From contig CAYSWA010000007.1 in NCBI GenBank assembly GCA_964434535.1, positions 8,321 through 72,320 of the forward strand: a stretch of DNA of 64,000 nt. The letters run 5' to 3'. This DNA comes from an uncultured candidatus Brocadiaceae bacterium (GTDB lineage: Bacteria > Planctomycetota > Brocadiia > SM23-32). Shown piece by piece: positions 22,431 through 37,402 of this stretch. Numbering within the stretch: the stretch's first letter is position 1; the number at the start of each line of letters is the position of its first letter. The position numbers and the translations under genes are program-made. The notes beneath the pieces are model-generated. The model was not told where the DNA came from, did no database searches, and saw nothing but the letters and a program-made list of their open reading frames with translations.

Positions 22431-23757
22431 ACGTGGCGTCCGCGACGTCAACACAGGCGCAATTCTGGCCCAGCGGGCCGAGGGCGGCCGCGCGCTCGGC
22501 ACGCGGCAGCGGCCCGGCACTGATCAGGCAAGCTCCACCGGCCGTGACCTCCCGGAAGCTGAGCGCGTGCAGCAGGTCTGCGGGGCGGTGCTCCTCGGTG
22601 GGGCGAGCCAGCGCGAGCGCCTCCAGCACGGAGAACAGATGCCCCGGCCCCATGTCGTAGGGCAGGGAGACCTGCTCTGGGCAGAACGAGGCGAAGGCGT
22701 AGAAGACCTCCCGCCGCGTCAGCGTCTCGGCGAGGGTGGCCGCGAAGCTGACCGCCATCTCGAAGCGGGCGCGCCATGGCGCAGGGGCGGCGCGCTGGGC
22801 CGGCGCAATGTAGGCGTCCAGCAGCACCAGCACGCTCTGGATCTCCTGCTTCTCGAACTCCCGCACGAAGAGCTTCTTCATCCGGGCGCTGGTCGGCCAG
22901 TGGATGCGGCGCGGGTTGTCGCCGTGCTTGTACTCGCGCAGCGAGCGGAACTCCCCCTGCGGCGCGGGGCGGCGCAGCCGGCTCAGCCACCTGGCCTCGC
23001 CCCTCTGTCGGCGATGCAGGAGCTCGCCGTCGATACGCCCCAGACGCGGCAAGACCATCACCCGCTCGCCCTGATGCGTGAGCATGGTTGTGTCCACAAC
23101 GCCGAAGGGGAAGGACGTGCTGACGGCGACCGGGCGCAGCCTGCGCAGGCCGCGCTCGGGCATGTAGTGGGTCAGCGTCGCCGTCCGCTCCTCGCCGGGC
23201 GCGAGCTGCAGGATGTGCCGCCGCTCGCCCAGGCCGACCCCGTCCCCGCCGGCGGCGCTCACCGCCAGGCCGAAGGCGCTCAGCAGGCGGCGTTCGTTGC
23301 GCAGGACCACCTCCAGGGGGAACGTCTTGCCAGCGAAGACGTGCGCCGGCGCGTGGCAGCGCGCCTGCGTTCGGGCCAGGCTCAGCCTGGGGAAGAGGGC
23401 GGCGCAGAGCCCGCCCGCCAGCAGGAAGGCGGCCGTCAGGTAGATCAGGTTCACCCCCCAGTGCCAGGCGATGGTGACGAACGTGGCGGCGATGGCGCCG
23501 TAGACCACGCCCCAGCCGGTGAGCCGGTAGCGGAACGAGCGGCGGTGCCCGGCCCGGCGCAGCAGCGCCCACGAGGTGACGGCCGCCAGCCCCTGCCACA
23601 CGATCAGCAGCAGGATCAGCAGCAGGATCACGCCGTAGGCCTTCAGCACCGACGCCACCGGCAGCACCAGCCCCGCCGCAATCCATGAGACGAAGCCCAC
23701 GGACCGGGCGGCAGCGGCGACGCGGACGGCCGGGCTCTGTGGGTTCTGTTCGTTCAT
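22408..23757 (-). CDS. DUF58 (vWA-like) domain protein
   Basis: Two N-terminal TM helices, then the REYKHGDNPRRIHWPTSARMKKLFVREFE DUF58 signature. Flanked by MoxR upstream and the transglutaminase downstream. Confidence 0.8.
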   Translation of the reverse strand: MNEQNPQSPAVRVAAAARSVGFVSWIAAGLVLPVASVLKAYGVILLLILLLIVWQGLAAVTSWALLRRAGHRRSFRYRLTGWGVVYGAIAATFVTIAWHWGVNLIYLTAAFLLAGGLCAALFPRLSLARTQARCHAPAHVFAGKTFPLEVVLRNERRLLSAFGLAVSAAGGDGVGLGERRHILQLAPGEERTATLTHYMPERGLRRLRPVAVSTSFPFGVVDTTMLTHQGERVMVLPRLGRIDGELLHRRQRGEARWLSRLRRPAPQGEFRSLREYKHGDNPRRIHWPTSARMKKLFVREFEKQEIQSVLVLLDAYIAPAQRAAPAPWRARFEMAVSFAATLAETLTRREVFYAFASFCPEQVSLPYDMGPGHLFSVLEALALARPTEEHRPADLLHALSFREVTAGGACLISAGPLPRAERAAALGPLGQNCACVDVADATFDEIFSY

Positions 23758-23796
23758 CCGACCTTCTGCCCCCCGGGCCGGCGAAGCGCGCCCACC

Positions 23797-24768
23797 CTAC
23801 AGCGTAACCGGCACCTGCTGGAGGATCTCGCGGATCACGCGGGCCGCCTCCTCGAAGCTGCTCGTCTCCGTTCCCGACGTGCGGTAGAAGCGTATGCGGT
23901 GCGAGAGCACGGGCGCGGCGAGCTCCTTGACGTCGTCCGGCTCCACGTAGTCACGCCCGCCGAGCAGGGCCAGCGCCTGGGCCGCCCGGTAGAGGTGCAC
24001 GGCGCCGCGCGGGCTGACCCCGGTGGCGACCGCCTCGTGGCGGCGCGTGGCCTCGATCAGGCGCAGTATGTAGTCGAGCACCTGCTCGGAGACGTTGACC
24101 CGGCGCACCAGCGCCTGGAGCTCTACCACCTCGGGCGCCCGCAGCACCGGCTCGACGTCCTCCAGCGGGTGATAGAGCCGCTGGTCGCGCACGATGCGCT
24201 TGCCCTCTTCGGTGGTGGGATAGCCGAGGTTCATGCGCAGGAAGAACCGGTCAAGCTGCGACTCCGGCAGCGGGTAAGTGCCCTCGAACTCGAACGGGTT
24301 CTGAGTGGCCAGCACGCAGAAGGGGCGGGGCAGGGGGTGCACCACGCCGTCGACGGTGATCTGGTACTCGTCCATCGCCTCCAGCAGGCAGCTCTGCGTC
24401 TTGGGGGTGGTGCGGTTGATCTCGTCGGCCAGCACGATATTGGCGAAGAGGGGCCCGCGTTTGAAGACGAAGCGCGACTGGCTCTCGTCGTAGATGTTCA
24501 CGCCCAGCAGGTCGCCCGGCAGCAGGTCGGGGGTGAACTGGATGCGTCGGAACTCGCAGTCCAGCGCGCTGGCGATCGTGTTGGCCAGCACGGTCTTGCC
24601 CACGCCGGGCACGTCCTCGATGATCAGGTGCCCGCCGGCCAGCATGGCGACCAGGGCCAGCTCCACGCGGTCGCGCTTGCCCACGTACACCTTCTCGATC
24701 TCGGCGATCAACGCCTCGATCGAGCCGCTCGGTATGGTGAGCCTCTCCGTCCCCGTATCTGCCGTCAT
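23797..24768 (-). CDS. MoxR-family AAA+ ATPase
   Basis: Walker A EDVPGVGKT, Walker B LADEINR, sensor motifs. ATG 24768 preceded by AAGGAG. The 1084-aa track ORF is an artificial upstream extension. Confidence 0.9.
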   Translation of the reverse strand: MTADTGTERLTIPSGSIEALIAEIEKVYVGKRDRVELALVAMLAGGHLIIEDVPGVGKTVLANTIASALDCEFRRIQFTPDLLPGDLLGVNIYDESQSRFVFKRGPLFANIVLADEINRTTPKTQSCLLEAMDEYQITVDGVVHPLPRPFCVLATQNPFEFEGTYPLPESQLDRFFLRMNLGYPTTEEGKRIVRDQRLYHPLEDVEPVLRAPEVVELQALVRRVNVSEQVLDYILRLIEATRRHEAVATGVSPRGAVHLYRAAQALALLGGRDYVEPDDVKELAAPVLSHRIRFYRTSGTETSSFEEAARVIREILQQVPVTL

Positions 24769-24894
24769 GCGCGCTCCTTGCGCTCTGTGAGGGCTGATTT
24801 CGAGTATAGGGCAGCCGCCTCGGAAAAGCAAAGACACCGCCCGCCAGGAGGCCACGCCCCGCCCGCCGGGCGTGCCCGCGAGGCGCCCGGGATG

Positions 24895-24923
24895 CTTGCA
24901 TTGCCCGTCGCTTTGCCCAATAA
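24895..24923 (+). promoter_or_regulatory. putative promoter TTGCAT-N17-AATAAT for GH42 gene
   Basis: Hexamer match in the 230-nt divergent region between the MoxR gene and the beta-galactosidase gene. Confidence 0.3.
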
Positions 24924-24999
24924 TGCCCCGGAGCTTGCCCTGCCTCCAGCCGGCGCGTTCCGGCCAGGGGCATGGAGCGCACCCCACACGGAGATGCAG

Positions 25000-26976
25000 A
25001 TGAGGATCGGCGTCGCCTACTACCCCGAGCACTGGCCGCGCGAGCTCTGGCCCGAAGACGCGCGCCGCATGGCGCAGGCCGGCGTGGACGTGGTGCGCCT
25101 GGGCGAGGCGGCATGGAGCCGGCTGGAGCCCAAGCGCGGCCAGTTCGACATGGATTGGCTGGGGGAGGCGATCGAGGTGCTCGCCGCCGAGGGGTTGGAG
25201 CTGATCCTCTGCACGCCGACGGCGACCCCGCCGCCGTGGCTCTTCCACCGACATCCCAGCATGGTCCCCCAGGACGCCTGCGGGCGGCACTGGCACCCCG
25301 GAAGCCGCCGGCACGTCTGCCTCAACAGCCGCCCCTATCGCCGCTACGTCCTGCGCGTCGTGCGCGAGATGGCCCGCACGTTCGGCGAGAGGCCCGAGGT
25401 GATCGCCTGGCAGGTCGACAGCGAGCTGGCCAGCTACGGCAGCGCCGAGTGCTACTGCGACGACTGCGAACAGGCATTCCGCGAGTGGCTCAAGCGTCGC
25501 TACGGCATGATCGACCGCCTCAACAAGCTCTGGGGCAGCGTGTTCTGGAGCCAGCAGTTCACCGACTGGCACGAGGTGCGTGCCCCCCGGCGCACGCCCG
25601 GCGGCCCGCACCCCTCGCTTCTGCTCGACTACCGGCGCTTCACCTCCGCTACCGTGCGCGACTTCGTGGCCGAGCAGCGCGACCTGATCGCGCAGTACTC
25701 CGCCGGCCGGCCGAAGCCCGTCACCACCAACGTCGGCGACGGCGGCGCCGGGGTGGTCAACTGGTTCTCCCTGGCGGGCTCGCAGGACGTGGCCGGCATG
25801 AGCGGCTGCCCCGCCGAGGGCGGCGATCCGGACGCCACCGCCATGCGCCTGGACCTGGCCCGGAGCGCCGGCGGAGGCGCTTTCTGGCTCAGCGAGCAGC
25901 AGGCCGGCGCGGACGCCGCCGGCCTCCGTCCCCGACCCGGGCGGCTCCGCCTCTGGTCCTTCCAGGCCGCCGCGCGCGGCGCCAGCCTGGTGAGCTACCT
26001 GCGCTGGCGCACCGCCCCCTTCGGCCACCAGATGCGCCGCGAGGGCATGCTGGACGCCTGGGGCTCTGCCGGACGTCGCTTCGATGAGCTGACGCAGACC
26101 GTCGCCGAGCTGAAGGGCCACGCCGACCGCTGGCAGAGCAGGGCGCCTGCGGCCCGCGTCGCCCTCGTGCTGGACTACCAGGCGCACTGGGCCCTGGAGG
26201 CCGACGACCTGGGCACCGGCCTGGACTGTCTGGCCCACGTTCGGGTCCTCTACGGGCTGCTGCGCCGCCGGGGCATCGGCGTCCGCCTCATCGCGCCCGA
26301 GGCCGATCCGGCGGGCCATGACCTGCTGGTGCTGCCGATGCCCGTGATCGGGCGCGAGGCCGATGCCCGCCTGTACGGCGATTTCGCCGCCGCCGGCGGC
26401 AGCGTGCTGGTGACGGCGCCGGCGGGCATCCGCACCGAGACGAACACCTGGCCGGCCGTCGCGCCGCCGGGGCCGCTGACGGAACTGCTCGGCGCGCGGA
26501 TCGTCGAGCACGCCGCGCCGCGCCCTGAAGAGGGGGTCGAGGTCAGGTTCGGCGACGCGCGGTTCCCGGTCCGGGCATTCTGCTGCGAGCTTCAGTTGAG
26601 GGGAGCTGAGCCGCTCGGCGAGTACGGGGGGCCGTGGTACGCGGGCAGCCCGGCCGCCTGCGTGCACCCGGTGGGGGAGGGGAGCGTGCGCTTCCTCTCG
26701 GCGGCGGGCGGGCCGCAGCTCTACGAGCACATGCTCGACGCCTCCCTCTCGGGCGCCGGGATCGAGGCCCACCCCTGGAGCGCGGAGCGTGTCGAGGTCG
26801 TGCCGCTCAGCACCCCCGAGGGGGAGGCGCCGCTCACCTTCGTGCTGAACCACGGGGCCGAGGAGGCCCGCCTGCCCCTGCAGGAAGGGGCCGCCGTCAC
26901 CGACCTGCTGACCGGCGAGGAGCACGAGGACGAAGTGCGGCTCGAGGGCTGCGGCGTGGCGCTCATCCGGGGTTGA
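25000..26976 (+). CDS. beta-galactosidase, glycoside hydrolase family 42
   Basis: MRIGVAYYPEHWPRELWPEDARRMAQAGVDVVRLGEAAWSRLEP...FDMDWLGEAIEVL is the GH42 N-terminal TIM-barrel pattern. Length 658 aa. Confidence 0.8.
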   Translation: MRIGVAYYPEHWPRELWPEDARRMAQAGVDVVRLGEAAWSRLEPKRGQFDMDWLGEAIEVLAAEGLELILCTPTATPPPWLFHRHPSMVPQDACGRHWHPGSRRHVCLNSRPYRRYVLRVVREMARTFGERPEVIAWQVDSELASYGSAECYCDDCEQAFREWLKRRYGMIDRLNKLWGSVFWSQQFTDWHEVRAPRRTPGGPHPSLLLDYRRFTSATVRDFVAEQRDLIAQYSAGRPKPVTTNVGDGGAGVVNWFSLAGSQDVAGMSGCPAEGGDPDATAMRLDLARSAGGGAFWLSEQQAGADAAGLRPRPGRLRLWSFQAAARGASLVSYLRWRTAPFGHQMRREGMLDAWGSAGRRFDELTQTVAELKGHADRWQSRAPAARVALVLDYQAHWALEADDLGTGLDCLAHVRVLYGLLRRRGIGVRLIAPEADPAGHDLLVLPMPVIGREADARLYGDFAAAGGSVLVTAPAGIRTETNTWPAVAPPGPLTELLGARIVEHAAPRPEEGVEVRFGDARFPVRAFCCELQLRGAEPLGEYGGPWYAGSPAACVHPVGEGSVRFLSAAGGPQLYEHMLDASLSGAGIEAHPWSAERVEVVPLSTPEGEAPLTFVLNHGAEEARLPLQEGAAVTDLLTGEEHEDEVRLEGCGVALIRG

Positions 26977-27010: not shown

Positions 27011-27799
27011 ATGGACGCAGGAACCGAGTTTTCGCGCCTGCTCCAGATCATGCGCCGGCTGCGCCGCGAGTGCCCCTGGGACCGCAGCCAGGACCACGAC
27101 TCCCTGCGCCCGTACCTGCTGGAGGAGACCTACGAGGTGCTCCACCTGCTCGACGAGGCCGCCTACGACGAGCTGCGGGAGGAGCTCGGCGACCTGCTGC
27201 TCCAGATCGTCTTTCACGCCGAGATCGCCGAGGAAGCCGGCCGCTTCGACATGGCCGACGTCCTCCACGCCATCAACGAGAAGCTCGTGCGGCGCCACCC
27301 GCACGTCTTCGGCGACCGGGAGGCCCGCACCCCGTCCGACGTCAGCCGCCGTTGGGAGACGATCAAGGCGGAGCAGGAGCAGAAGGAGTCGGCGCTCGGC
27401 GGCGTGCCGCAGGCCCTGCCCGCCCTGGTGAAGGCCGCCCGGGTGCTGTCGAAGATGCGCCAGTGCGGCTGTGACCCTTTCCGCTGCGCCGACCCCGCCG
27501 GGGAGGCGCGCCGCGAGCTGGAGCGGCTCGAACGCGCCGCGGGCGAAGGGGAGGGCGAGGGCCGGGGGGCCGACGAGGCCCTCGCGATGCTGTTGCTCGG
27601 CGTGGCCGGCCTCAGCGACCGGCTCGGCACGGGCCCCGAGGAGGCGCTGCGCGGGGGCGTGCGCCGCCTCAGCGAGGCATTCCGCCGCGAGGAGTCGGCG
27701 CTGAAAGGCAGCGGACGCACCTTCGCCGAGCTGGCCCCCGCCGAGCTCGACGCGGCGGCCGAGCGGATCCTGAGCGCCGTCAGGGGGCCGAAGACGTGA
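27011..27799 (+). CDS. mazG: nucleoside triphosphate pyrophosphohydrolase MazG
   Basis: LRRECPWDRSQDHDSLRPYLLEETYEV...EELGDLLLQIVFHA...EKLVRRHPHVFGD are the MazG EExxE motifs. Confidence 0.8.
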   Translation: MDAGTEFSRLLQIMRRLRRECPWDRSQDHDSLRPYLLEETYEVLHLLDEAAYDELREELGDLLLQIVFHAEIAEEAGRFDMADVLHAINEKLVRRHPHVFGDREARTPSDVSRRWETIKAEQEQKESALGGVPQALPALVKAARVLSKMRQCGCDPFRCADPAGEARRELERLERAAGEGEGEGRGADEALAMLLLGVAGLSDRLGTGPEEALRGGVRRLSEAFRREESALKGSGRTFAELAPAELDAAAERILSAVRGPKT

Positions 27800-28554
27800 A
27801 CGCGATATTGCTGGCGGCCGGCTACGGGATGCGCCTCTACCCGCTGACCAGGGACCGGCCCAAGCCCCTCCTGCGCGTCGGCGGCCGCCCCATACTGGAC
27901 CACCTGCTGGACCGGCTGGAGGCCGCGCCCGAGGTCGAACGGCTCGTGCTGGTGAGCAACGACAGGTTCGCCGACGACTTCGCCCGCTGGGCCGAGCGGC
28001 GCCGGCCCGAGAAGCCGTTGACGCTCTTGAATGACGGATCGACCTGCAACGAGGACCGCCGCGGCGCCGTGGCCGACATCCGGTTCGCCGTCGAGGAGGC
28101 CGGGCTGCGCGGCGCGCCGGCCTACGTGCTGGCCACCGACAACCTGCCCCGCTTCGACCTGCGCGCGATCATCGGCCTCTGCCGCGAGAAGGGCGCCTCG
28201 GCCGTCTTCGCCTGCCGCGTGGCCGAGCGCCGTCGGCTGCGGCGCATGGGCGTGGCCCGGCTCGACGAGGAGGGCCGCATCGTCGCCTTCGAGGAGAAGC
28301 CGTCCGAGCCGCAGGGCAACCTGCGCGTGCCGCCTTTCTACCTCTACACCCCCGAGGCCGTCGACGCGGTCGGCGATTTCCTTCGCCAGGGCCGCGAAGC
28401 CGACGCGCCGGGCCACCTGCTGGCGTGGCTGGTCGGCCGCCTGCCCGTCTACGCCCTGCGCCGCGACGAAGGCACCCACGACATCGGCACGCTCGAGAGC
28501 TACCGCGCCGTCTGCGCGGAGTTCGACGCCGCTGCCCACGGACCGGCGAAGTAA
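27796..28554 (+). CDS. sugar-phosphate nucleotidyltransferase (NTP_transferase family)
   Basis: MNAILLAAGYGMRLYPLTRDRPKPLL is the G-x-G-x-R-L nucleotidyltransferase signature. Confidence 0.7.
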   Translation: MNAILLAAGYGMRLYPLTRDRPKPLLRVGGRPILDHLLDRLEAAPEVERLVLVSNDRFADDFARWAERRRPEKPLTLLNDGSTCNEDRRGAVADIRFAVEEAGLRGAPAYVLATDNLPRFDLRAIIGLCREKGASAVFACRVAERRRLRRMGVARLDEEGRIVAFEEKPSEPQGNLRVPPFYLYTPEAVDAVGDFLRQGREADAPGHLLAWLVGRLPVYALRRDEGTHDIGTLESYRAVCAEFDAAAHGPAK

Positions 28555-28576
28555 CCGCTAACCGGAGAGCGAACAG

Positions 28577-29386
28577 ATGATCGAACGCACGATCGGCTTC
28601 ATCGGCACCGGCACGATGGCCACGGCGCTCGCCGGGGGCATGCTCAATGCCGGCGTCGCCGCGCAGGAACGCATCCTCGGCGCCGACCCTGACCCCGTGC
28701 GCCGCGAGGGGTTCGCCGGCCTGGGGGCGACCGTCTTCGACGACAACCGGCTGCTGCTCCAGCGCTGCGAGGCCGTGGTGCTGAGCGTCAAGCCGAACGT
28801 CGTGCCCGCCGTTGCGCGGGAGATCGCGCCTTACGTCACGGAGCAGATGCTGGTCGTCTCGATCGCCGCCGGGGTCACGCTCGGCGCGCTGGAGAAGATG
28901 CTCGGCACCGAGCGGCTGGTGCGCGTCATGCCCAACACGCCGGCGCGGGTGGGGCAGGGCGCCTCGGCTTACTGCACCGGCGAGGGCGCGACGGACGAGG
29001 ACGCCGCGCTCGTGCAGCAGATGCTCGGCTCGGTCGGCCTCTGCGTCCGCGTGAAGGAGGAGCAGATGGACGCCGTCACGGGGCTGAGCGGCAGCGGGCC
29101 GGCCTACCTCTACCTGGTGATCGAGGCGCTGGCCGACGGCGGGGTCAAGCTCGGGATGCCGCGCGACATCGCCCTGCGGCTGGCGGCGCAGACGGCGAGG
29201 GGCGCGGCGCAGATGGTGCTGGAGACCGGCAGCCCGCCGGCGCAGCTGCGCGAGCAGGTCACCACCCCCGGCGGAACGACGCTCGAGGGACTCGGCGTGC
29301 TGGAGGAGGCGGGCATGCATCGGGCGTTCGTCGAGGCGGTGGAGGCGGCGGCGCGCAAGTCGGCGCGGCTCTCGAAGCAGGACTGA
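28577..29386 (+). CDS. proC: pyrroline-5-carboxylate reductase
   Basis: IGFIGTGTMATAL Rossmann motif...VMPNTPA...GSGPAY...TPGGTT, the canonical ProC motifs. Confidence 0.85.
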   Translation: MIERTIGFIGTGTMATALAGGMLNAGVAAQERILGADPDPVRREGFAGLGATVFDDNRLLLQRCEAVVLSVKPNVVPAVAREIAPYVTEQMLVVSIAAGVTLGALEKMLGTERLVRVMPNTPARVGQGASAYCTGEGATDEDAALVQQMLGSVGLCVRVKEEQMDAVTGLSGSGPAYLYLVIEALADGGVKLGMPRDIALRLAAQTARGAAQMVLETGSPPAQLREQVTTPGGTTLEGLGVLEEAGMHRAFVEAVEAAARKSARLSKQD

Positions 29387-29408
29387 TCCCCCGCTGTGGG
29401 GCGCTGCC

Positions 29409-29906
29409 TCAGGGCCGGAAGTCGCTCTGCTTGACCTCGTCCATCAGGACGACGGCGTGCACCTCGATCGCCTGGCCCTTGCCGACGGCGCCGAGTCCCT
29501 CGGCGGTGCGGGCCTTGACGCTGACGCTCTCCAGCGGCACGGACAGGATGGCGGCCAGTTGCGCGCACATGCCCTTCTTCATGCCGCTGAGGCGGGGTCG
29601 CTCGGCGATGACGTTCACGTCGACGTTGGCCACGGCGAGCCCGCGCTCGCGCGCCGCCAGCAGGGCGGCCTTCGAGAGGATGCGGGCGCTGTCGGCGTCC
29701 TTCCACTCGTCGGAATCGTCGGGGAAGTGCTCGCCGATGTCGCCCAGGCCAGCGGCGCCGAGGATGGCGTCGGCCACGGCGTGCAGGACGGGGTCGGCGT
29801 CGCTGTGGCCGGTCAGCGCCGGCAGGCCGGGGAACTTGACCCCCCCGAGCACCAGCTCGCCGGCCGTGCCGAACCTGTGCACGTCGTAGCCGATCCCGAC
29901 ACGCAT
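29409..29906 (-). CDS. ispF: 2-C-methyl-D-erythritol 2,4-cyclodiphosphate synthase
   Basis: MRVGIGYDVHRF...GHSDADPVLHA...DIG. ATG 29906 with GGGAGG upstream. Confidence 0.85.
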   Translation of the reverse strand: MRVGIGYDVHRFGTAGELVLGGVKFPGLPALTGHSDADPVLHAVADAILGAAGLGDIGEHFPDDSDEWKDADSARILSKAALLAARERGLAVANVDVNVIAERPRLSGMKKGMCAQLAAILSVPLESVSVKARTAEGLGAVGKGQAIEVHAVVLMDEVKQSDFRP

Positions 29907-30041
29907 TGAGCGGCCTCCCTGCTCGCCACGCCGCATTCTACCGAGCGGGCGAGGCCCAACACAAGGCGGCCCTCCCGCTCCGTGGCGCGACGGGCTCCGC
30001 AGGGCTTAGAATGGTCCGGATCGGCACTTCGAGGATCCCCC

Positions 30042-32762
30042 ATGCCCGACGCACAAGCCGGCCCGCCATCGACCGGGCGCTCCGACGAGGAGCTGTGGGA
30101 GCGGTTCGTCGGCGGCGACGCCGCCGCGCTCGCCGAGCTGAGAGCCCGCCACACGGGCCCGCTCTACCGCTACCTGCTGCTGAGCACCGGCCGCCCCGAC
30201 GAGGCCGGCCGGCACGTGGTCGGCACGTGGAGCCTGCTGGCCTGCTACCGGGAGCGCTTCCAGGGCTTCGCCTCGTTCCGCGCCTGGCTCTACGCCGTGG
30301 CCACCCAGAGGTGGATGCCGCCGACGCACCCCGAGCAGTTCGGCCTGACCGACCTGATGGACGATCTGCGCCGCGGCCGGCCGAGCTCGCGCGAGGGACG
30401 CATCTTCTTCCGCGTCAACGACATGCATCGCTCCGTGCGGCAGCCGTTCCTGCTGGAGGCGCTGGCGGGCCTCGGGCCCGACGAGATCGCCGCCGCCTGC
30501 CGCTTCACGCCCGAGCGCGTCCGCAAGGCTCTCGCGACGGCCTACCGGCGCCTCGCCCGCAGCGGGCTCTTCGGCCCGGGCGAGGGGGCGGACGCGGAGT
30601 CGCGCGCGGCCATCGCCGAGCAGGTCCGGCAGGCCGCCGACGTCTCGCTGCCGGAAGAGATGGCGGAGCTCGTCGAGCGCGGGGTGGCGGAGGCGACTGA
30701 GAGCGGGGAGGTGCTCCGCACTGCCCCGGCCGATTGGAGGCCCGAGCGTTCGGGCCGGCAGCGGGCGGCCCTCGTGGTGGCGTCCATCGTCCTGTTCGTG
30801 GTCGGGTCGGCCGGGCTTCTCGCTCTGCTGGGAGGCCGGGGGGAGCCCGTGCCGCCGGTCGCCGAAGCGGCCTCTCTATCAGGCCGCGCCGAGGTGCGGC
30901 CCCCGGGCGTCAGCGTGTGGCGCGAGATGGGCCGGCGGGAGTCCCTGCCGCCCGGCGCGCAGGTGCGCACCGGGCCGCAGGCCTACCTGGTGCTGCGGGG
31001 GGAGGGGGTCGAGTGGTGGCTGCCGCCCGTCACGGTCGTGGCGCTGCCCGAGCCCCGGACGGCTGAGCTGCTGGCAGGGAGGCTGTATGCGCGCGTGGAA
31101 ACCGGCGAAGCCCCGGGACGCGTGACCTCCGAGAACGGAAGCGTGGCCTGCCCGGAGGGGGAGTTCGTCGCCCGGGTGACCTCCCGGCGCTTCATCGCCG
31201 GCTGCGTGGGCGGAGACGCGGCTGTCGAGGCGGGCGAGGCGAGCGCGCAGCTCGGCCCCGGGGAGCTGACCATGGCCACCCGGGGCGAGCATGTCGGGCC
31301 GGTGCGGCCCGTCCGCCCCGCGCAGCTCACGCACTGGCTGGGTGAGTTCGCGCGCTACGAGGGGCGCCACATCGAGCCGCGGCAGCTCGCCGGCGTGCCC
31401 CTCGCGCCCGCGGCGCCCGCGCTGCCGCGCGGCGTGCGCATGGAGCGGCTCGCGCTGGAGCTCACCGTGCGCGGCCCCCTTGCGCTCGTCGAAGTGCGGG
31501 CGGCGCTGAGCAACGAAGGCGATGCGCAGTGGCAGGGGACGCTGGACCTCGGCGCGGCCGTCCTTCCCCCGCCCCTGGCGATCACCTCGGACGGGCCGCT
31601 TCGGCTGGCGCCCGGCGAGGGGGGCGAGGCCCGGCTGGCCGGGCTCTGCCTCATGCGCGACCGGCGCGGGCACTACGCCCTCGGCATCGACCCGGGCGCC
31701 TGGAGCGGCGGGACAATCGGCCGTCTGGACGTGCAGGTGAGCTCTGACGCGCAGGGCGGCATCGGCCGCTTCGCCTGCCCCACGCTCGGGGCGCGCTTGA
31801 GGCCGCGGGGGGCGCTGGACTGGACGGCGCGGCGCCGGGATTTCGCTGCGGAGACGCCGCTCGTCTTCGAGTTCGAGTTCGGCAAACCCGAGGGCATCGC
31901 GTGCCTGACGGGCTCCACCGACGGCGCGCGGGCGGCCCTGGTCGCCTGGCGGCCTCCCGCCGTGAAGCAGGAGTGGATCGCGAAGGAGCGCAACGTCTTC
32001 ATCGCTTTCGACGCCACGGCCGACTTCGGCCCGGGCGGCCGTTTCGCTGCCCAGGAGGCGCTGGAGGGCCTGATCCAGGCGCTGCCGCCGGGCTGCTCGA
32101 CGGCCTTGCTCGCCTACGACGGCCGGCTGCGGCTTGACCCCGACCGCCTGGCGCTGCACCATCCCGACCGGGTGGAGTCGATGCTCTCCGGGCTCTGGCA
32201 GCTCCAGGTGGAGGGCGCGGAGGAGGAGGCCGCGCCCGGCGCCTTCCTGGCGGCCGCCGTCGAGCTGGCCGTGGGGGCCGAAGGGGAGGGGTTGCTCGTG
32301 TTCGTCACCGGGCGCGAGGCGCCCGTGGAGCTGCCGGAGGCCAGGCCGGACGGCGGCCTGCGCGTCTGCGTCATCCAGGTCGGCGCGGAGGCGCCCGCCG
32401 CGGCGTATGCGGCCCTGTGTGCGGGCACGGGCGGCGTGGCGCTGGCCGTGCCGCCGACGGCGGCGCCGGACCTGGCCGTGATCGACTTCCTGGTGAACCT
32501 GGACGTGGCGGCGCTGCGCGAGGTCGCGCTCGATGCGCCGGGCGCCGGCGCGGCGGCCGTGCTGCGGGGGGAGGCGCGCTTCAGCAGCCAGCCGGTTGTC
32601 GGGCTGCTCGCCCTGCCGGGGGCGGGGGGTTCGGTGGCCGGCCGCTTTCGGGCGCGCGCCGGGGGACGCGCATTGGAGCGGCACTTCGCCCTCGAAGCGA
32701 CGCCGGTCGACTCCCTGCCGCCCGCGCTCGTCCGGGTGCTGGGGCAGCGCCACCTGCGGTGA
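30042..32762 (+). CDS. fusion protein: ECF sigma-70 factor + transmembrane FecR-like anti-sigma domain + C-terminal vWA-like domain
   Basis: Sigma region 2 (LYRYLLLSTGRPDEAGRHVVGTWSLLACYRERFQGFASFRAWLYAVA) and region 4 HTH (PDEIAAACRFTPERVRKALATAYRRL). One TM helix (LVVASIVLFVVGSAGLLALL). FecR-like block (SVWREMGRRESLPPGAQVRTGPQAYLVLRGEGVEWW). vWA-like VFIAFDATADFGPGG near the C-terminus. A TAGAAT -10 lies at 30007-30012. Confidence 0.7.
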   Translation: MPDAQAGPPSTGRSDEELWERFVGGDAAALAELRARHTGPLYRYLLLSTGRPDEAGRHVVGTWSLLACYRERFQGFASFRAWLYAVATQRWMPPTHPEQFGLTDLMDDLRRGRPSSREGRIFFRVNDMHRSVRQPFLLEALAGLGPDEIAAACRFTPERVRKALATAYRRLARSGLFGPGEGADAESRAAIAEQVRQAADVSLPEEMAELVERGVAEATESGEVLRTAPADWRPERSGRQRAALVVASIVLFVVGSAGLLALLGGRGEPVPPVAEAASLSGRAEVRPPGVSVWREMGRRESLPPGAQVRTGPQAYLVLRGEGVEWWLPPVTVVALPEPRTAELLAGRLYARVETGEAPGRVTSENGSVACPEGEFVARVTSRRFIAGCVGGDAAVEAGEASAQLGPGELTMATRGEHVGPVRPVRPAQLTHWLGEFARYEGRHIEPRQLAGVPLAPAAPALPRGVRMERLALELTVRGPLALVEVRAALSNEGDAQWQGTLDLGAAVLPPPLAITSDGPLRLAPGEGGEARLAGLCLMRDRRGHYALGIDPGAWSGGTIGRLDVQVSSDAQGGIGRFACPTLGARLRPRGALDWTARRRDFAAETPLVFEFEFGKPEGIACLTGSTDGARAALVAWRPPAVKQEWIAKERNVFIAFDATADFGPGGRFAAQEALEGLIQALPPGCSTALLAYDGRLRLDPDRLALHHPDRVESMLSGLWQLQVEGAEEEAAPGAFLAAAVELAVGAEGEGLLVFVTGREAPVELPEARPDGGLRVCVIQVGAEAPAAAYAALCAGTGGVALAVPPTAAPDLAVIDFLVNLDVAALREVALDAPGAGAAAVLRGEARFSSQPVVGLLALPGAGGSVAGRFRARAGGRALERHFALEATPVDSLPPALVRVLGQRHLR

Positions 32763-32784
32763 GGCCGCGCGTCGTGCGTTCCGC

Positions 32785-32812
32785 TTGACGCGGCTCGGGG
32801 TTCGTGTAGAAT
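32785..32812 (+). promoter_or_regulatory. strong sigma-70-like promoter TTGACG-N16-TAGAAT
   Basis: TTGACG 32785-32790, TAGAAT 32807-32812. It lies 58 nt upstream of the ATG at 32870. Confidence 0.5.
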
Positions 32813-32834
32813 GGAACTGACTGGTCAGTTCCAT
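32811..32834. promoter_or_regulatory. perfect 24-bp palindrome ATGGAACTGAC-TG-GTCAGTTCCAT (putative operator)
   Basis: 11-bp arms with a 2-bp spacer, overlapping the -10/+1 region of the preceding promoter. This is typical operator placement for a dimeric repressor. Confidence 0.5.
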
Positions 32835-32869
32835 GCGGGGGCACGCAACCGGTTTCCGAAGGCAAGTGG

Positions 32870-33781
32870 ATGGCATCCCTGATAGAGAGAAGCAATCCTG
32901 CGCCCGAGCCGCCGTACGCTGAGGTGCGCGGCGAGGGCTCGGACAACGCGCTGAGGGAGCTCCAGCACGAGCCCCCGGAGGAGCTCGCCCGCATCATCGC
33001 CGAGCGCCTGGAGCCGGGGGAGCGGCTGATCCTGTCCTTCCCGGTGGACATGAACCTGCTGGGCCGCTACGCGCAGGAATGGCTCATCCTCACCGATCGG
33101 CGCTGCTACGTCTACGAGGGGCTGGACTCGGGCTACGAGCTGCGGCTGCCCGAGCGGAAGGTCTGCCCCACGTGCGGTCGGATCATCCGCCCCCGTATCG
33201 GCACCTGCCTCGCCTGCATGAGCAAGCGGCGGATACTGCTGCGGCTGCTGCGGTTCGTGCGGCCGCACGCCGGCCTGATGGCGGTGGCGCTCTGCCTGCT
33301 GCTGGTGGCGACGGCGATCAGCATGGCGCCGCCCCTGATCTCGAAGGCGGTCTTCAACCTGGCGATCGTGCCGACGGCGGGGGAGGCGGCGGCGCCGGCG
33401 GAGAACTTCTGGTACCGGTTCGCCGAGCCGGAGTCGGTCGAGCTCCTGCTGGTGCTTGGCGGCGCGCTCCTGCTGGCGTTCGCCGTGCCTGCGGTGCTGG
33501 ACGGGGTGCGCCAGTTCGTGATGGGGCGGGTCGGCATGCACGTGGTGGTGGACCTGAGCAACACCGCTTTCTCGCACATGATGCGCCTGAGCCTTTCGTT
33601 CTACCATCGCGAGCAGACCGACCGTGGCCCGCGCCGCATCGAGCTGAAGAGCAGCCACGACGCCGACCGCCTGCCCGGCGGGCGCATCTACGTGCGCGAC
33701 GCCGAGGGGAACGCCTACCTGATCCCCGACTACCGCGCGTTGGACCCCGCCAGCCGCGACATGATCGACCTGTTCATGTAG
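32870..33781 (+). CDS. membrane protein with N-terminal zinc-ribbon/PH-like domain and ABC-exporter-type TMD fragment (truncated; possible pseudogene/remnant)
   Basis: CPTCGRIIRPRIGTCLAC zinc ribbon. RILLRLLRFVRPHAGLMAVALCLLLVATAISMAPPLISKAVFN and FSHMMRLSLSFYHREQT match TM1-3 of ABC exporter TMDs. The ORF stops after about 3 helices and no NBD follows in any frame. Confidence 0.4.
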   Translation: MASLIERSNPAPEPPYAEVRGEGSDNALRELQHEPPEELARIIAERLEPGERLILSFPVDMNLLGRYAQEWLILTDRRCYVYEGLDSGYELRLPERKVCPTCGRIIRPRIGTCLACMSKRRILLRLLRFVRPHAGLMAVALCLLLVATAISMAPPLISKAVFNLAIVPTAGEAAAPAENFWYRFAEPESVELLLVLGGALLLAFAVPAVLDGVRQFVMGRVGMHVVVDLSNTAFSHMMRLSLSFYHREQTDRGPRRIELKSSHDADRLPGGRIYVRDAEGNAYLIPDYRALDPASRDMIDLFM

Positions 33782-33878
33782 CCGCTGCGGGCGCCTCGCC
33801 GGTGACACGGGCCGGGCGTTCTGGTACAATGTTTGGCGAGGCGCGCGTGCGCCCTTTGCAGGGCTCCTGGAGCGGCCG

Positions 33879-34874
33879 ATGCTGGGTTGGAGAGACATTC
33901 TCCTCCTCTCGATGCTGTTGCTCGGCGCGGCGGTCGTGATCGCCGGCGGTGCGGGGGCGATGGAGGTCTGGACGCCGCAGGCCGGAGAGGTGGAGCTGGA
34001 GGAGATGCCGCGCGACGACGTGGAGTCCCGCCGTCGGCACGCGATCGCCCTGATCGGCGCCGGGCAGTGGGCGGGCGGCATGGCCGAGCTGCGGGGCCTG
34101 CTGAAGGATCATCCTGACGCTTCGTGGGTGCCGGAGGCCCGCATGGCCCTGGCCCGCGGCTGGCTGGCGCAGCAGAAGCCACGGAAGGCGTTCGAGGAGC
34201 TGGCCGGGCTGCTGGCCGAGTGGCCGGAGACGGAGCTGAGGCCGCATGCGCGGGCCGCGCAGTTCACATGCGCACGCATGGCCGGCCAGGAGGATGTGGG
34301 GCGCGGCGTCGCCCTCTACGAGCGGATCATCGAGACGTCGCAGGACCGCGACGAGGCGGCGCTCGCGCAGGTCAGGATGGCCGACCTTCTCTTCGAGGCG
34401 CGACGTTACCTGGACGCGGAGACGGAGTACCTGGCGCTGGTCAGCTTCTACCCGGACAGCGAGTGGGTGCCTTACGCCTGGTATCGCGCCGCCGCGTGCC
34501 AGAAGGGCCTGGCCGAGTGGCTGGAGCTGGGGCTGGAGAACGTGGAGACGGCCGAGGCACACCTGAGGGACTACCTGCAGCGCTACCCGGGGCACGCGCA
34601 GTCCGACCAGGCGCGCCAGGCGCTAAAGGAGGTGCGGCGGCGCGAGGCGGAGCTGAACCTGGAGATCGCCCGCTTCTACGCCGAGGCGGAGGGCCGCCCC
34701 TGGGCGGCGGTTTGTTACCTGGAGCACGTCGTGGAACGGTTCCCGGGCACTCCCGAGGCCGACGAGGCCGGCGCCGAGCTGGCGCGCATCCGGGGCCGGA
34801 TGCGCGCGCCCCTGCCGGGCGAGGTGAGGGAGTTGAACGTGCCCGGCGTCGTGCGGCAAGGAGCAAGCGAGTGA
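33879..34874 (+). CDS. TPR-repeat outer-membrane lipoprotein, BamD/YfiO-like
   Basis: N-terminal signal/anchor. Multiple TPR-like units (ALARGWLAQQKPRKAFEELAGLLAEWP..., AQFTCARMAGQ..., YLALVSFYPDSEWVPYAWYRAAAC) resemble BamD. Confidence 0.6.
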   Translation: MLGWRDILLLSMLLLGAAVVIAGGAGAMEVWTPQAGEVELEEMPRDDVESRRRHAIALIGAGQWAGGMAELRGLLKDHPDASWVPEARMALARGWLAQQKPRKAFEELAGLLAEWPETELRPHARAAQFTCARMAGQEDVGRGVALYERIIETSQDRDEAALAQVRMADLLFEARRYLDAETEYLALVSFYPDSEWVPYAWYRAAACQKGLAEWLELGLENVETAEAHLRDYLQRYPGHAQSDQARQALKEVRRREAELNLEIARFYAEAEGRPWAAVCYLEHVVERFPGTPEADEAGAELARIRGRMRAPLPGEVRELNVPGVVRQGASE

Positions 34875-35365
34875 GAAGCGCACGGGTCACGAAGGCGATC
34901 GGCGCCGTGCTGGCGCTGGCGGCCCTGGCGGGCTGCTTCGGTTACCGGGCCGAGAGCCTGTTCCGCCCGGACATACGGACCGTCTACGTGGAGGCGTTCG
35001 ACAACGGGACGTTCCGGCGCGGGCTGGAGGTGCCGCTTACGCGGGCGGTGGCGGACGAGATCCGCCTGCGCACGCCGCTGGTGCTGGCGCCGCGCGAGGA
35101 GGCCGACAGCGTGCTCAGCGGCGAGCTGGTCGAGTTCAGCGAGAGCACGCAGGTCAAGACGGAGGACGACCGGATACTGCTGAACCGGGTGACGGCCGAG
35201 GTCCGCTTCCGCTGGCGCGACCGCTTGACCGGGCGGGACATCGTGCCCGAGCAGACCGTCCAGGAATCGGTGCGCATCGCCGAGTCGCTGGAGGAGACGT
35301 TGTTCGGGCTCGTTTTTGAGGAGACGGCTCAACGCATCGTCGAACGGATGCAGGAGCCCTGGTGA
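34871..35365 (+). CDS. lipoprotein (LptE-like)
   Basis: GTG 34871 overlaps the upstream stop (GTGA). Lipobox LALAALAGC followed by an LptE-like pattern (TVYVEAFDN...LVLAPREEADSVLSGEL). Confidence 0.5.
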   Translation: MRSARVTKAIGAVLALAALAGCFGYRAESLFRPDIRTVYVEAFDNGTFRRGLEVPLTRAVADEIRLRTPLVLAPREEADSVLSGELVEFSESTQVKTEDDRILLNRVTAEVRFRWRDRLTGRDIVPEQTVQESVRIAESLEETLFGLVFEETAQRIVERMQEPW

Positions 35366-35371
35366 CGGACA

Positions 35372-37402
35372 ATGGCGAGAGACGACGAGAGGCGCAGGAT
35401 GCGCGAGGCGGGGCCCGAGGAGCCCTTTGACGACGACGGCCCGCAGCGTCCCCGCGTGGGGCGGCAGTTGCTGATATGGGCCGTCTTCATCGGGGCCGTG
35501 CTGGTGGCCTTCTTCCTGTATCAGCGCATGAAGCACTCGACCGAGCGGGACATCACCATCGGCGAGCTCCAGGTCCTGATGGCGCAGGGCCGCGTCACGG
35601 AACTGCGCGTCGAGGGGACCAACGCACGCGGCTCGCTGAAGGCCGAGGGCGGGCAGAGCGCGCCGTTTCGCGTGACGCTCAGCGAGGGCTACATCGACGA
35701 TCACCTGGACGAATGGGCGCGCCACCTGCCGAAGGACGCGCTGAGCATCAAGGAGCCGGCCGGGATGGTGCCGATGCTGCTGCTGCAGATGGCGCCGTTC
35801 CTGCTGCTGCTGGTGCTGATGGTCTACTTCTTCAACCGGCAGATGCGCGCGGTCGGCTCGCGCGACGGGTTCTCGCCCTTCCTCGGCTCCAGCACGAACG
35901 CCGCGCGCAAGGAACGGCCGGAGGTGACCTTCAACGACGTGGCGGGCGTCGAGGAGGCCAAGGAGGAGGTGCAGGAGATCGTGGAGTTTCTGAAGAGCCC
36001 CGAGAAGTTCCAGCGCGTCGGCGGGCGCATCCCCCGCGGCGTGCTGCTGGTCGGGGCGCCGGGCACGGGCAAGACGCTGCTGGCCAAGGCGATCGCCGGC
36101 GAGGCGGACGTGCCGTTCTTCAGCCTCTGCGGCTCGGACTTCGTGGAGCTTTTCGTCGGCGTCGGCGCCTCGCGCGTGCGGGACCTGTTCCGCAAGGCGC
36201 GCCAGAACCAGCCGGCGATCATCTTCCTGGACGAGATCGACGCCGTCGGCCGCAAGCGCGGCACCGGCCTGGGCGGGGGGCACGACGAGCGGGAGCAGAC
36301 GCTCAACGCGATCCTGAGCGAGATGGACGGGTTCAGCCGGGACGAGGGCGTCATCGTGATCGCCGCGACGAACCGGCCGGACGTGCTGGATCCGGCGCTG
36401 CTGCGCCCGGGCCGTTTCGACCGCGAGATCGTGGTGGACATGCCGGACGTGCGGGGCCGGGAGGAGATCCTGAAGGTGCACGCCCGCAAGGTGAACATGG
36501 CGCCGGAGGTGGGCCTGAGCGAGATCGCGCGCGGCTCCCCCGGCTTCACCGGCGCCGACCTGGAGGCGCTGGTCAACGAGGCGGCTATCCAGGCGGCCGT
36601 CAAGGGCCGCGAGGAAGTCCGCCAGGAGGACCTGGAGGAGGCGCGCGACAAGGTGCGCTTCGGCCGCCAGAAGAAGCGCAGCCGTGTGATGAGCGACGAG
36701 GACCGCCGCATGACGGCCTATCACGAGGCCGGCCACGCCCTGGTGGCGAAGCTGCACGAGGACGTGGAGCCGCTGCATAAGGTGACGATCATCCCGCGCG
36801 GCGTCGCCCTGGGCATGACCATGGTGCTACCGGAGAAGGACAAGTACGGCATGCGCATGCGGGAATGCCTCGGGGCGATCACGATGAACATGGCGGGGCG
36901 CGTCTCGGAGGAGATGTTCTGCGGCGACATATCTTCCGGCGCCGAGAACGACATCCGCGCCGCCACCAACCTGGCCCGCAAGATGGTCACCCAGTGGGGC
37001 ATGAGCGAGGCCCTGGGGCCGATCAGCTACAGCGACGACGAGCAGCACGTCTTCCTCGGCAACGAGATCACCAAGGCCAAGCAGCACAGCGAGCGCATGG
37101 CCGAGCAGATCGACCAGGAGATCTGCGACATCCTCATGCGCTGCTACGAGGCGGCCAAGAGCACCTGCAAGGAGCACTCGGCCGAGCTCCAGGCCGTGGC
37201 CGAGGTGCTGCTGGAGCTGGAGACGCTGACCGGCGAGGACGTGGACTGGATCTTCGAAGGCGCGACCGTCGAACAACTGGTGGCCGCCCGCCGCGAGAGC
37301 GAGCGCGAGAAGGAGCGCGCCGAGGCCGAGCGCAAGCAGCGGCGGGAGCGCACCGATGAGTCGCCCGGCGGCTACCCCGCCCCGGCCGGCAGCCCGGCCT
37401 GA
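35372..37402 (+). CDS. ftsH: ATP-dependent zinc metalloprotease FtsH
   Basis: Walker [12 protein letters not shown] second region of homology, HEAGH zinc motif, two N-terminal TM helices. Confidence 0.9.

Follow-up and report, generated by a model that had tools for sequence, protein, structure and literature searches.

The open reading frame (ORF) at positions 30042-32762 (+) of the window, a stretch of 64,000 nucleotides from contig CAYSWA010000007.1 of an uncultured candidatus Brocadiaceae bacterium, encodes a protein of 906 amino acids (aa), P0001, in which an extracytoplasmic function (ECF)-type sigma domain is joined through a single transmembrane (TM) helix to a large periplasmic sensor. 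The gene probably encodes a membrane-tethered ECF-type sigma factor that originated from an in-frame deletion fusing a sigma gene to an overlapping ZAS anti-sigma gene, and that would be released by proteolysis. Fusion is the derived condition, specific to this lineage, of a system normally composed of two genes. A preliminary description of this DNA had proposed a single polypeptide of ECF-type sigma factor, one TM helix, FecR-like domain and large von Willebrand A (vWA)-containing extension, and this layout is borne out by family profiles and by a structural model. It had also spoken of a covalently tethered sigma/anti-sigma pair, which does not really hold, as the zinc-finger half of the anti-sigma domain (helices I-II with HxxxCxxC), found in 30/30 split relatives, is deleted here and missing from every frame.

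Derivation of the fused gene from a two-gene system

The relatives of the protein were collected by an exhaustive HMMER search over 1.84 billion cluster representatives, which returned 358 matches at E ≤ 1e-3, of which 54 reached E ≤ 1e-30, describing a small family found in Planctomycetota. The family itself is new, its members being named hypothetical or left unnamed in the examined sources and their domains being largely missed by Pfam. Word-indexed protein searches with the single protein or with a 43-sequence profile recovered only the protein itself and one homologue, probably because words rich in alanine, glycine and arginine swamp the prefilter, and scans of genomes and metagenomes with a two-sequence alignment gave no matches. 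The alignment of 43 family sequences (A3) was too divergent for pattern design, for which a 10-sequence alignment served instead.

P0002, which at 42% identity is the closest homologue, lacks a sigma part and starts with a ZAS N-terminus carrying HLQGCAAC, while its locus, L001, has a separate 173-aa sigma gene with an 11-nt overlap with the anti-sigma start. Six further loci from species-representative genomes, all metagenome-assembled genomes of Planctomycetota, are split as well with the ZAS motif present (6/6), and in 7/7 related loci (L001 and L003-L008) a ZAS anti-sigma ORF thus comes after the sigma ORF and overlaps it in a different frame. These loci share the order proC, ispF (opposite strand), sigma, anti-sigma, bamD, lptE and ftsH; the family profile matches RslA and RsiW, and zf-HC2 is detected in 11 members. 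A bootstrapped neighbour-joining tree of ProC, IspF and the periplasmic domain (979 columns) grouped the window with the split loci L001 and L003 with a bootstrap of 99%. Since the related loci are split and syntenic and the window nests with two of them at this support, the two-gene state is ancestral and the window fusion is derived.

The junction and the remnant of the class I anti-sigma domain lie at 30591-30704 (+), as located by the alignment with P0002 and by the helices of the AlphaFold2 (AF2) model. Residues 13-183 of the window protein cover the entire 173-aa sigma factor of L001, and residue 184 onward aligns with P0002 from its residue 39, leaving the first 38 residues of a P0002-type anti-sigma factor (helices I-II and the zinc ligands) without a counterpart. 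The four-helix class I domain is therefore incomplete, with helices I-II gone and a helix III remnant (aa 185-198) and helix IV (aa 205-221) left. HxxxCxxC is absent from the protein and from all six frames of window positions 29900-31000, and the six frames around the junction gave no significant match to 30 anti-sigma N-termini, so a hidden, frameshifted ZAS segment was rejected. Because the missing segment is untraceable in any frame, the event is read as an in-frame deletion of approximately 38 codons plus the sigma stop codon and not as a frameshift. A comparison of the junction with L001 at the DNA level yielded no information, the divergence being too high.

The source is a metagenome-assembled genome, for which an assembly or sequencing artefact joining two genes has to be considered, although it appears very improbable. 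A protein identical to that of the window is recorded in an NCBI assembly and in a Logan assembly of SRR7048218, both in the ATG form of 906 aa, and the 8.8-kb Logan contig is 100% identical to window positions 27184-35974, so that the two assemblies, which may share the same reads, agree base for base. The ORF runs without interruption through 906 codons and a stop, and the G+C content at third codon positions (GC3) is 0.89-0.97 in its frame in every 90-codon segment from start to stop, in a window of approximately 72% G+C; being even throughout, the junction included, it speaks for one coding frame rather than two that an error has joined. The junction represents a frame-preserving deletion rather than a 1-nt frameshift, its flanks are similar over a few bases only, far below assembler k-mer sizes, and analogous fusions occur in independent datasets. 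The simple frameshift that the preliminary description had named as a possible refutation of its reading was hence not seen.

The remainder of the protein is well preserved. Scoring was confined to columns where the window protein has a residue; of 54 strongly conserved TM and periplasmic columns the protein deviates at 1, against a family median of 6.5, and of 39 conserved sigma columns likewise at 1, which argues against long-standing relaxed constraint and is still compatible with a very recent event.

Helix IV is followed by a cytoplasmic juxtamembrane proline motif (aa 228-237; 30723-30752, +), identified in the family alignment with the consensus PPAxPxPE(R) and reading APADWRPERS in the window protein. 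Across 38 members, P229 is conserved in 35, A230 in 36, P232 in 33 and P234 in 34, with a tryptophan at the P232 position in the window. The motif is among the best-conserved parts of the family and is retained in all fused forms; it may be a recognition site for a protease or an adaptor. The single TM helix comes directly after it (aa 238-263; 30753-30830, +), as given by the AF2 helix 238-263 and the hydropathy maximum at aa 244-262. One helix had been expected from the outset, at aa 255-277; the number stands and the position shifts to aa 238-263, with its core at 244-262.

The sigma domain

The N-terminal domain is a divergent ECF sigma factor, with sigma2 and sigma4 over aa ~13-176. A profile of 13 sequences of this domain (A5), searched against the Protein Data Bank (PDB) sequences, matched 7qh5 (E 6e-13) and Escherichia coli sigmaE (1or7, E 9e-11), with sigma2 and sigma4 aligned as separate stretches, and also matched AlgU (6in7), SigW, CnrH, SigL and SigH. 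Region 2 (aa ~13-95; 30078-30326, +) is placed by the NCBIfam PRK12513 match over aa 13-90 and by the A5 alignments to sigmaE, AlgU, SigW and 7qh5, the sigma2 alignments having E-values of 6e-13 to 6e-9. Region 4 (aa ~115-176; 30384-30569, +) is placed by the Pfam Sigma70_r4_2 match over aa 132-171 and by A5 alignments to 1or7, 6jbq, 2o8x and CnrH, of which the first three cover profile positions 115-173. The two regions are separated by only approximately 20 residues, and sigma3 and sigma1 regions are absent. The L3-loop/region 2.4 motif GF.SFR.WLYAVATQ and the sigma4 helix-turn-helix are conserved, and weaker family matches of 180-205 aa are true ECF sigma factors by Pfam.

The presence of sigma-70 regions 2 and 4, which had been placed at about residues 20-200, is thus upheld by profile A5 at aa 13-176. 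The domain database scans gave sub-threshold sigma matches only: Sigma70_r4_2 reached E 0.007 and 16.3 bits (cut-off 25.7), PRK12513 reached E 4e-14 and 53 bits (cut-off 206), and NCBIfam TIGR02937 scored 11.8 bits (cut-off 42.9).

Recurrent fusion and loss of the zinc finger

Thirty of 38 full-length representatives are stand-alone anti-sigma factors, all 30 with HxxxCxxC at residues ~14-29, and eight carry a sigma domain. Three of these eight keep the ZAS motif (P0006, P0008 and P0072), and five lack it (the window protein, P0014, P0031, P0044 and P0071), so that ZAS loss is associated with fusion (5/8 fused vs. 0/30 split; Fisher p 1e-4, kinship ignored). The junctions without ZAS take four forms: the window protein is cut to mid-helix III, P0014 keeps "HL" without CxxC, P0031 and P0044 show a third form, and P0071 a fourth. 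Helix IV and the juxtamembrane PPAxPxPE(R) are retained in all of them. The coexistence of split and fused orthologues, with the same anti-sigma sub-domain repeatedly lost, is a new feature of this family.

P0014 is represented by four distinct 931-aa sequences from three independent datasets (ENA, NCBI (MCD6416167.1) and JGI), and its gene lies at the bamD-lptE-ftsH locus as well; the four P0014-type genes differ by at most 6 nt, too little for dN/dS to be informative. P0031 and P0044, both fused and without ZAS, are only 35% identical, which would imply a long persistence of the ZAS-less fusion if the event is shared. The P0008 and P0031 loci group together (83%), apart from the window, and a group of the window with loci L014 and L016 has 0% support. 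At least four fusion events (the window, the P0008/P0031 clade, P0014 and P0071/P0072) and at least four ZAS losses are counted from these sequences; both counts are provisional because the trees are distance-based, built by neighbour joining, and have long terminal branches. Each of the sister pairs P0008/P0031 and P0072/P0071 has one ZAS-bearing and one ZAS-less member, which suggests that fusion came first and ZAS loss after.

Tentatively, and with more doubt than attaches to the origin of the window gene, the family might be regarded as a natural series leading from a two-protein sigma/anti-sigma switch to a one-protein tethered sigma factor, with at least four fusions, helices I-II repeatedly lost, helix IV and the proline motif always kept, and the covalent link replacing the anchoring to sigma4; the system, with its ITIH-like VIT-vWA ectodomain and its fixed place beside bamD-lptE-ftsH, might constitute the sigmaE-like envelope-integrity pathway of the clade.

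A shorter family member from outside the window was also noted: P0055 (286 aa, JGI), seen on two contigs and called a sigma-24 family protein in its source, has a sigma domain, a ZAS-less linker, a single TM helix and only approximately 37 periplasmic residues. It may be a sensor-less membrane-anchored sigma factor or a truncated gene.

The periplasmic ectodomain

The domain content of the protein, ectodomain included, is visible only through family profiles and a full-length AF2 model, as Pfam alone misses almost all of it. The model built from the 43-sequence alignment has a mean predicted local distance difference test (pLDDT) of 92.4 and a predicted template modelling score (pTM) of 0.76; the one built from two sequences was useless (pLDDT 36). 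Scans of the window protein itself with Pfam and NCBIfam detected neither FecR nor VWA, and phmmer of the window protein against PDB sequences gave no match.

The first periplasmic domain (aa ~272-425; 30855-31316, +) is a FecR-like beta domain, in agreement with the preliminary description. The family profile searched against PDB sequences matched the PupR CCSSD (6ovk, E 7e-7), MtxA (8e-4) and 4m0h (0.024); Foldseek superposed the domain on 4m0h with a root-mean-square deviation of 2.2 Å over 139 columns and also matched 6ovk; and 9 of the 43 family members match Pfam FecR (PF04773). Three weaker relatives, P0081, P0082 and P0098, are anti-sigma proteins composed of zf-HC2, FecR and HEAT domains.

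In the model, the C-terminal ~450 aa form a module similar to the inter-alpha-inhibitor heavy chains (ITIH), consisting of a putative VIT-like sandwich followed by a vWA fold and, C-terminally, a beta domain, and its combination with FecR is a new type of sensor. The best Foldseek match of aa ~460-890 is inter-alpha-inhibitor heavy chain 1 (ITIH1, 6fpy), with E 1.4e-18 over 550 columns of the 600-residue chain; further matches of this module are bacterial and archaeal vWA proteins (4fx5 and ArnB), integrin beta I-like domains and Sec23/24. The VIT-like beta-sandwich (aa ~460-640; 31419-31961, +) is all-beta in the AF2 model, and its label is proposed from the 6fpy match, whose coverage of 550 out of 600 target residues suggests that the VIT region is included; Pfam VIT matched neither the window protein nor any of the 43 family members. 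The vWA-like alpha/beta domain (31989-32501, +) is recognised by the alternation of strands and helices over aa 651-817 in the model and by Foldseek, with Pfam VWA in 1 of 43 family members (E 1.4e-4). It is followed by a family-conserved C-terminal beta domain with a terminal helix (aa ~825-906; 32514-32762, +), modelled as strands over 826-885 and a helix over 894-905. The extension of approximately 500 aa proposed to end in a vWA-like fold accordingly does contain that fold, as part of a VIT-vWA (ITIH-like) module, and ends in a beta domain of ~80 aa after it.

The metal-ion-dependent adhesion site (MIDAS) of the vWA-like domain is non-canonical. Its positions, with the register taken from sequence and model secondary structure, read D657-A-T-A-D661 and T756-G757 in comparison with DxSxS and TDG, and across 38 members position 661 is aspartate or glutamate in 27, while position 757, that of the "TDG" aspartate, is glycine in 33. 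A canonical MIDAS acting as a metal sensor was rejected since the metal-site residues are replaced here and family-wide, and the earlier suggestion of a metal ligand as the signal is left with little to recommend it.

Proposed mechanism and its alternatives

Proteolysis at site 1, followed by site 2 (RseP), is the usual way in which membrane anti-sigma factors are eliminated. A class I anti-sigma domain has its helices 1-3 packed as a bundle, with helix 1 touching sigma4 and helix 4 covering sigma2 regions 2.1-2.2, the surface bound by the RNA polymerase clamp helices (PMC7406223), and the IutY hybrid is activated via Prc and RseP with the release of an N-terminal fragment of approximately 23 kDa (PMC5411451, PMC8999054). 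The in-frame deletion that joined the ancestral sigma gene to the overlapping downstream ZAS (class I) anti-sigma gene removed the sigma stop codon, anti-sigma helices I-II and HxxxCxxC. It spared the helix III remnant, helix IV, the juxtamembrane motif rich in proline, the TM helix and, in full, the periplasmic sensor (FecR-like and VIT-vWA). By analogy, the following course is proposed for the resulting protein. At rest, the covalent tether would hold the sigma domain at the inner membrane, helix IV may mask the RNA polymerase-binding surface of sigma2 in cis, and the peptide bond at the sigma4 end would substitute for the anchoring by helix I and for the zinc site. The FecR/VIT-vWA ectodomain may then bind a periplasmic or outer-membrane cue that triggers site-1 cleavage, after which site-2 (RseP-type) cleavage in or near the TM helix would free an N-terminal sigma fragment of ~25-28 kDa for RNA polymerase. 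IutY-like proteolytic activation is the best analogy and the most likely mode of release.

Several observations weigh against this account. No protein more than 50% identical to that of the window is on record, the fusion being a singleton; no site-1 or site-2 protease gene was identified in the annotated parts of the window; Pfam Sigma70_r2 matches neither the window protein nor, at E < 0.01, any of the 43 family members; and region 2.2 carries a degenerate motif (RHVVGTW instead of D..QE.F). Owing to the last two points, which mark the sigma domain as divergent, the binding of RNA polymerase is a prediction only. The next downstream ORF is moreover a deletion remnant itself, pointing to a lineage that accumulates deletions here, so that the fusion might have arisen recently as an allele that is neutral or deleterious.

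The absence of Sigma70_r2 matches throughout the family and the degenerate core-binding motif of region 2.2 would also suit an N-terminal domain that is not a working sigma factor, that is, a PhyR-type mimic, or a sigma factor active while tethered without proteolysis, making the protein a one-component transmembrane regulator of another kind. Weak matches to the PhyR sigma-like domain (PF22233, E 4e-5 for the L001 protein; PDB 2lfw, 2e-4) point the same way. However, true ECF sigma factors score far above PhyR in both domains, the L3 loop, region 2.4 motif and sigma4 helix-turn-helix are conserved, and the partner in the split relatives is a textbook ZAS anti-sigma factor (RslA, RsiW; zf-HC2 in 11 members), which implies a real sigma target. 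This possibility is consequently regarded as improbable.

A more serious contender, though still an unlikely one, is a recent deletion allele of no regulatory design, in which a damaged anti-sigma factor leaves the sigma factor locked off or deregulated and the gene, neutral or mildly deleterious, is heading to loss. It would account for a fusion that is unique to the window lineage, with the nearest relatives L001 and L003 split, for the tolerance of deletions at the locus shown by the adjacent 303-aa ORF, a remnant of an ABC exporter and DUF1854, and for the removal of a segment (zinc finger and helices I-II) conserved in 30/30 split relatives. It sits poorly with 906 intact codons of coding-type GC3, with conserved positions that are almost all kept (1/54 and 1/39 deviating), and with the persistence of the same architecture elsewhere, both in P0014 from three independent datasets and in P0031/P0044 at 35% identity; furthermore, IutY shows that such hybrids can be functional. 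The tethered sigma factor released by proteolysis is hence the preferred reading.

The constant position next to bamD-lptE-ftsH is suggestive, as a hypothesis only, of a link to envelope monitoring, which is weakened by the fact that the block around the sigma gene consists entirely of housekeeping and syntenic genes and that a separate promoter-like site (33802-33830) precedes bamD. We know of no characterised envelope-stress pathway in Planctomycetota, and the bamD-lptE link, if functional, would point to one.

Start codon, promoter region and neighbouring genes

The ORF has an alternative start, GTG at 29982 (+), with the same end at 32762. A -10-like hexamer, TAGAAT (30007-30012, +), was read from the sequence upstream of the ATG at 30042, exactly where the preliminary description had put it, and a candidate Shine-Dalgarno element, GAGGA (30031-30035, +), lies 6 nt before that ATG. 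The ATG is favoured as the start because TAGAAT sits downstream of the GTG and GAGGA precedes the ATG. In the two closest loci the element occupies an identical place relative to the conserved DEELW codons (TAGAAT in L003, TAAAAT in L001), and the more distant related loci have TTGACA ... (G/T)ACAAT in its place. A consensus scan does not call the site at 30007-30012 and found no -35 partner for it. TAGAAT is also found on the minus strand (29940-29935), 29 nt ahead of the likely start of ispF (ATG 29906), and it therefore reads as a general -10 element; an ECF-type autoregulated promoter was rejected, given the likeness of the element to a -10 box of housekeeping type and the use of this hexamer by the divergent ispF as well. 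The likely true start of ispF is ATG 29906 (MRVGIGYD, as in the Logan contig) and not the mechanically listed ATG 29936, and the block ATTCTACC near this start (29904-29906) is kept in several related loci.

The 303-aa ORF directly downstream (32870-33781, +) is preceded by a good promoter-like site, TTGACG-16-TAGAAT (32785-32812). Its residues 16-257 correspond to aa 36-349, the N-terminal third, of an ABC exporter of 816 aa such as that of L010, and at an HRE(Q/E)T | (D/G)R microhomology it switches into the last ~55 residues of the DUF1854 neighbour (14/16 identical over QTDRGPRRIELKSSHD), with ~1.8 kb missing and the frame nonetheless kept. An ABC exporter and DUF1854 pair, or its remnant, lies between anti-sigma and bamD in four loci (L010, L014, L016 and the window), all of them fused (4/4), and in 0/5 split loci with known downstream sequence; P0014 is fused without the pair. 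A single ancestral fusion of these loci was rejected, since {window, L014, L016} has 0% support vs. 99% for {window, L001, L003}. As the loci are not one clade by the tree, the co-occurrence could be due to chance, to repeated loss of a pair present in the ancestor, or to a functional link. Directly upstream of bamD stands a strong promoter-like site of sigma-70 type, GTGACA-17-TACAAT with an extended -10 TG (33802-33830, +), so that co-transcription of bamD-lptE with the sigma/anti-sigma gene is not required.

Further away, window positions 20115-24800 (minus strand) hold a gene cluster of a MoxR-type AAA+ ATPase, DUF58 and a TgpA-like transglutaminase. In the mechanical ORF list, the MoxR gene has been absorbed into a minus-strand ORF of 1084 aa, which shares positions with the N-terminal extension of a GH42 beta-galactosidase ORF (23899-26976, +), and gene starts around 20115-26976 need care in such high-GC DNA.

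Comparison with known systems

To our knowledge, IutY is the only sigma/anti-sigma hybrid that has been dissected, and how such hybrids arise is undocumented. ECF sigma factors fused to a membrane-spanning anti-sigma-like sensor are already known from IutY, ECF48, ECF52 and ECF53, and some ECF36 members (PMC8999054). IutY of Pseudomonas putida (ECF243 clade; PMC5411451, PMC8999054) resembles the window protein in comprising one ORF with an N-terminal ECF sigma domain, a single TM helix and a periplasmic FecR-type domain, in having no full cytoplasmic anti-sigma domain between the sigma domain and the TM helix, and in having relatives that are two-gene systems. It differs in being a FecI-like, proteobacterial protein of 374 aa paired with the TonB-dependent transducer IutA, whereas the window protein has 906 aa, a divergent sigma domain, ZAS-type ancestry, no nearby transducer gene and an extra VIT-vWA module of 450 aa. 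Processing by Prc/RseP is shown for IutY and would apply to the window protein by analogy.

The actinobacterial groups ECF48, ECF52 and ECF53 (e.g., SCO4117; PMC8999054, PMC5826349) likewise have a sigma domain with a C-terminal anti-sigma-like membrane extension and an extracytoplasmic sensor, and proteolytic activation has been proposed for them. The zinc finger is kept in these groups and fusion is the group rule, while in the window protein the zinc finger is lost and fusion is sporadic and derived within a mostly split family; phylum and sensor domains differ as well. The class I (ZAS) pairs RsiW-SigW, RslA-SigL and ChrR-SigE are comparable with the split relatives of the window, with an HxxxCxxC N-terminus, one TM helix and a gene that follows the sigma gene immediately and overlaps it; unlike them, the window protein has neither helices I-II nor zinc ligands and is covalently joined to its sigma factor.

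The FecR/PupR anti-sigma factors of cell-surface signalling share the periplasmic beta domain by profile (6ovk, E 7e-7) and by fold, and are set apart by their own N-terminal type of cytoplasmic domain, which is ZAS-derived in the window, by the large extra ectodomain of the window protein, and by their transducer: no TonB-dependent transducer or receptor is present among the window neighbours (proC, ispF, the ABC/DUF1854 remnant, bamD, lptE and ftsH) or in the related loci. The ECF289-associated anti-sigma factors (vWA with DUF3520; PMC7826278) have an extracytoplasmic von Willebrand A domain in common with the window protein; compared by description only, they belong to a different sigma clade and are not fused, and the window protein has no DUF3520 match. 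ITIH heavy chains (6fpy) and bacterial VIT-vWA proteins offer the best fold match for aa ~460-890, with 12% sequence identity to ITIH1, a MIDAS that is not conserved (DATAD, TG), and a bacterial periplasmic sensor as the context in the window. This rare sensor type (FecR with ITIH-like VIT-vWA) goes unrecognised by domain databases, and such proteins are labelled "hypothetical".

Set against these systems, the present family has split and fused orthologues that share one locus, with fusions that appear independent and the same anti-sigma piece apparently dispensable each time. This provides a testable rule for engineering and annotation, according to which a tether can replace helices I-II and the zinc site as long as helix IV is retained.

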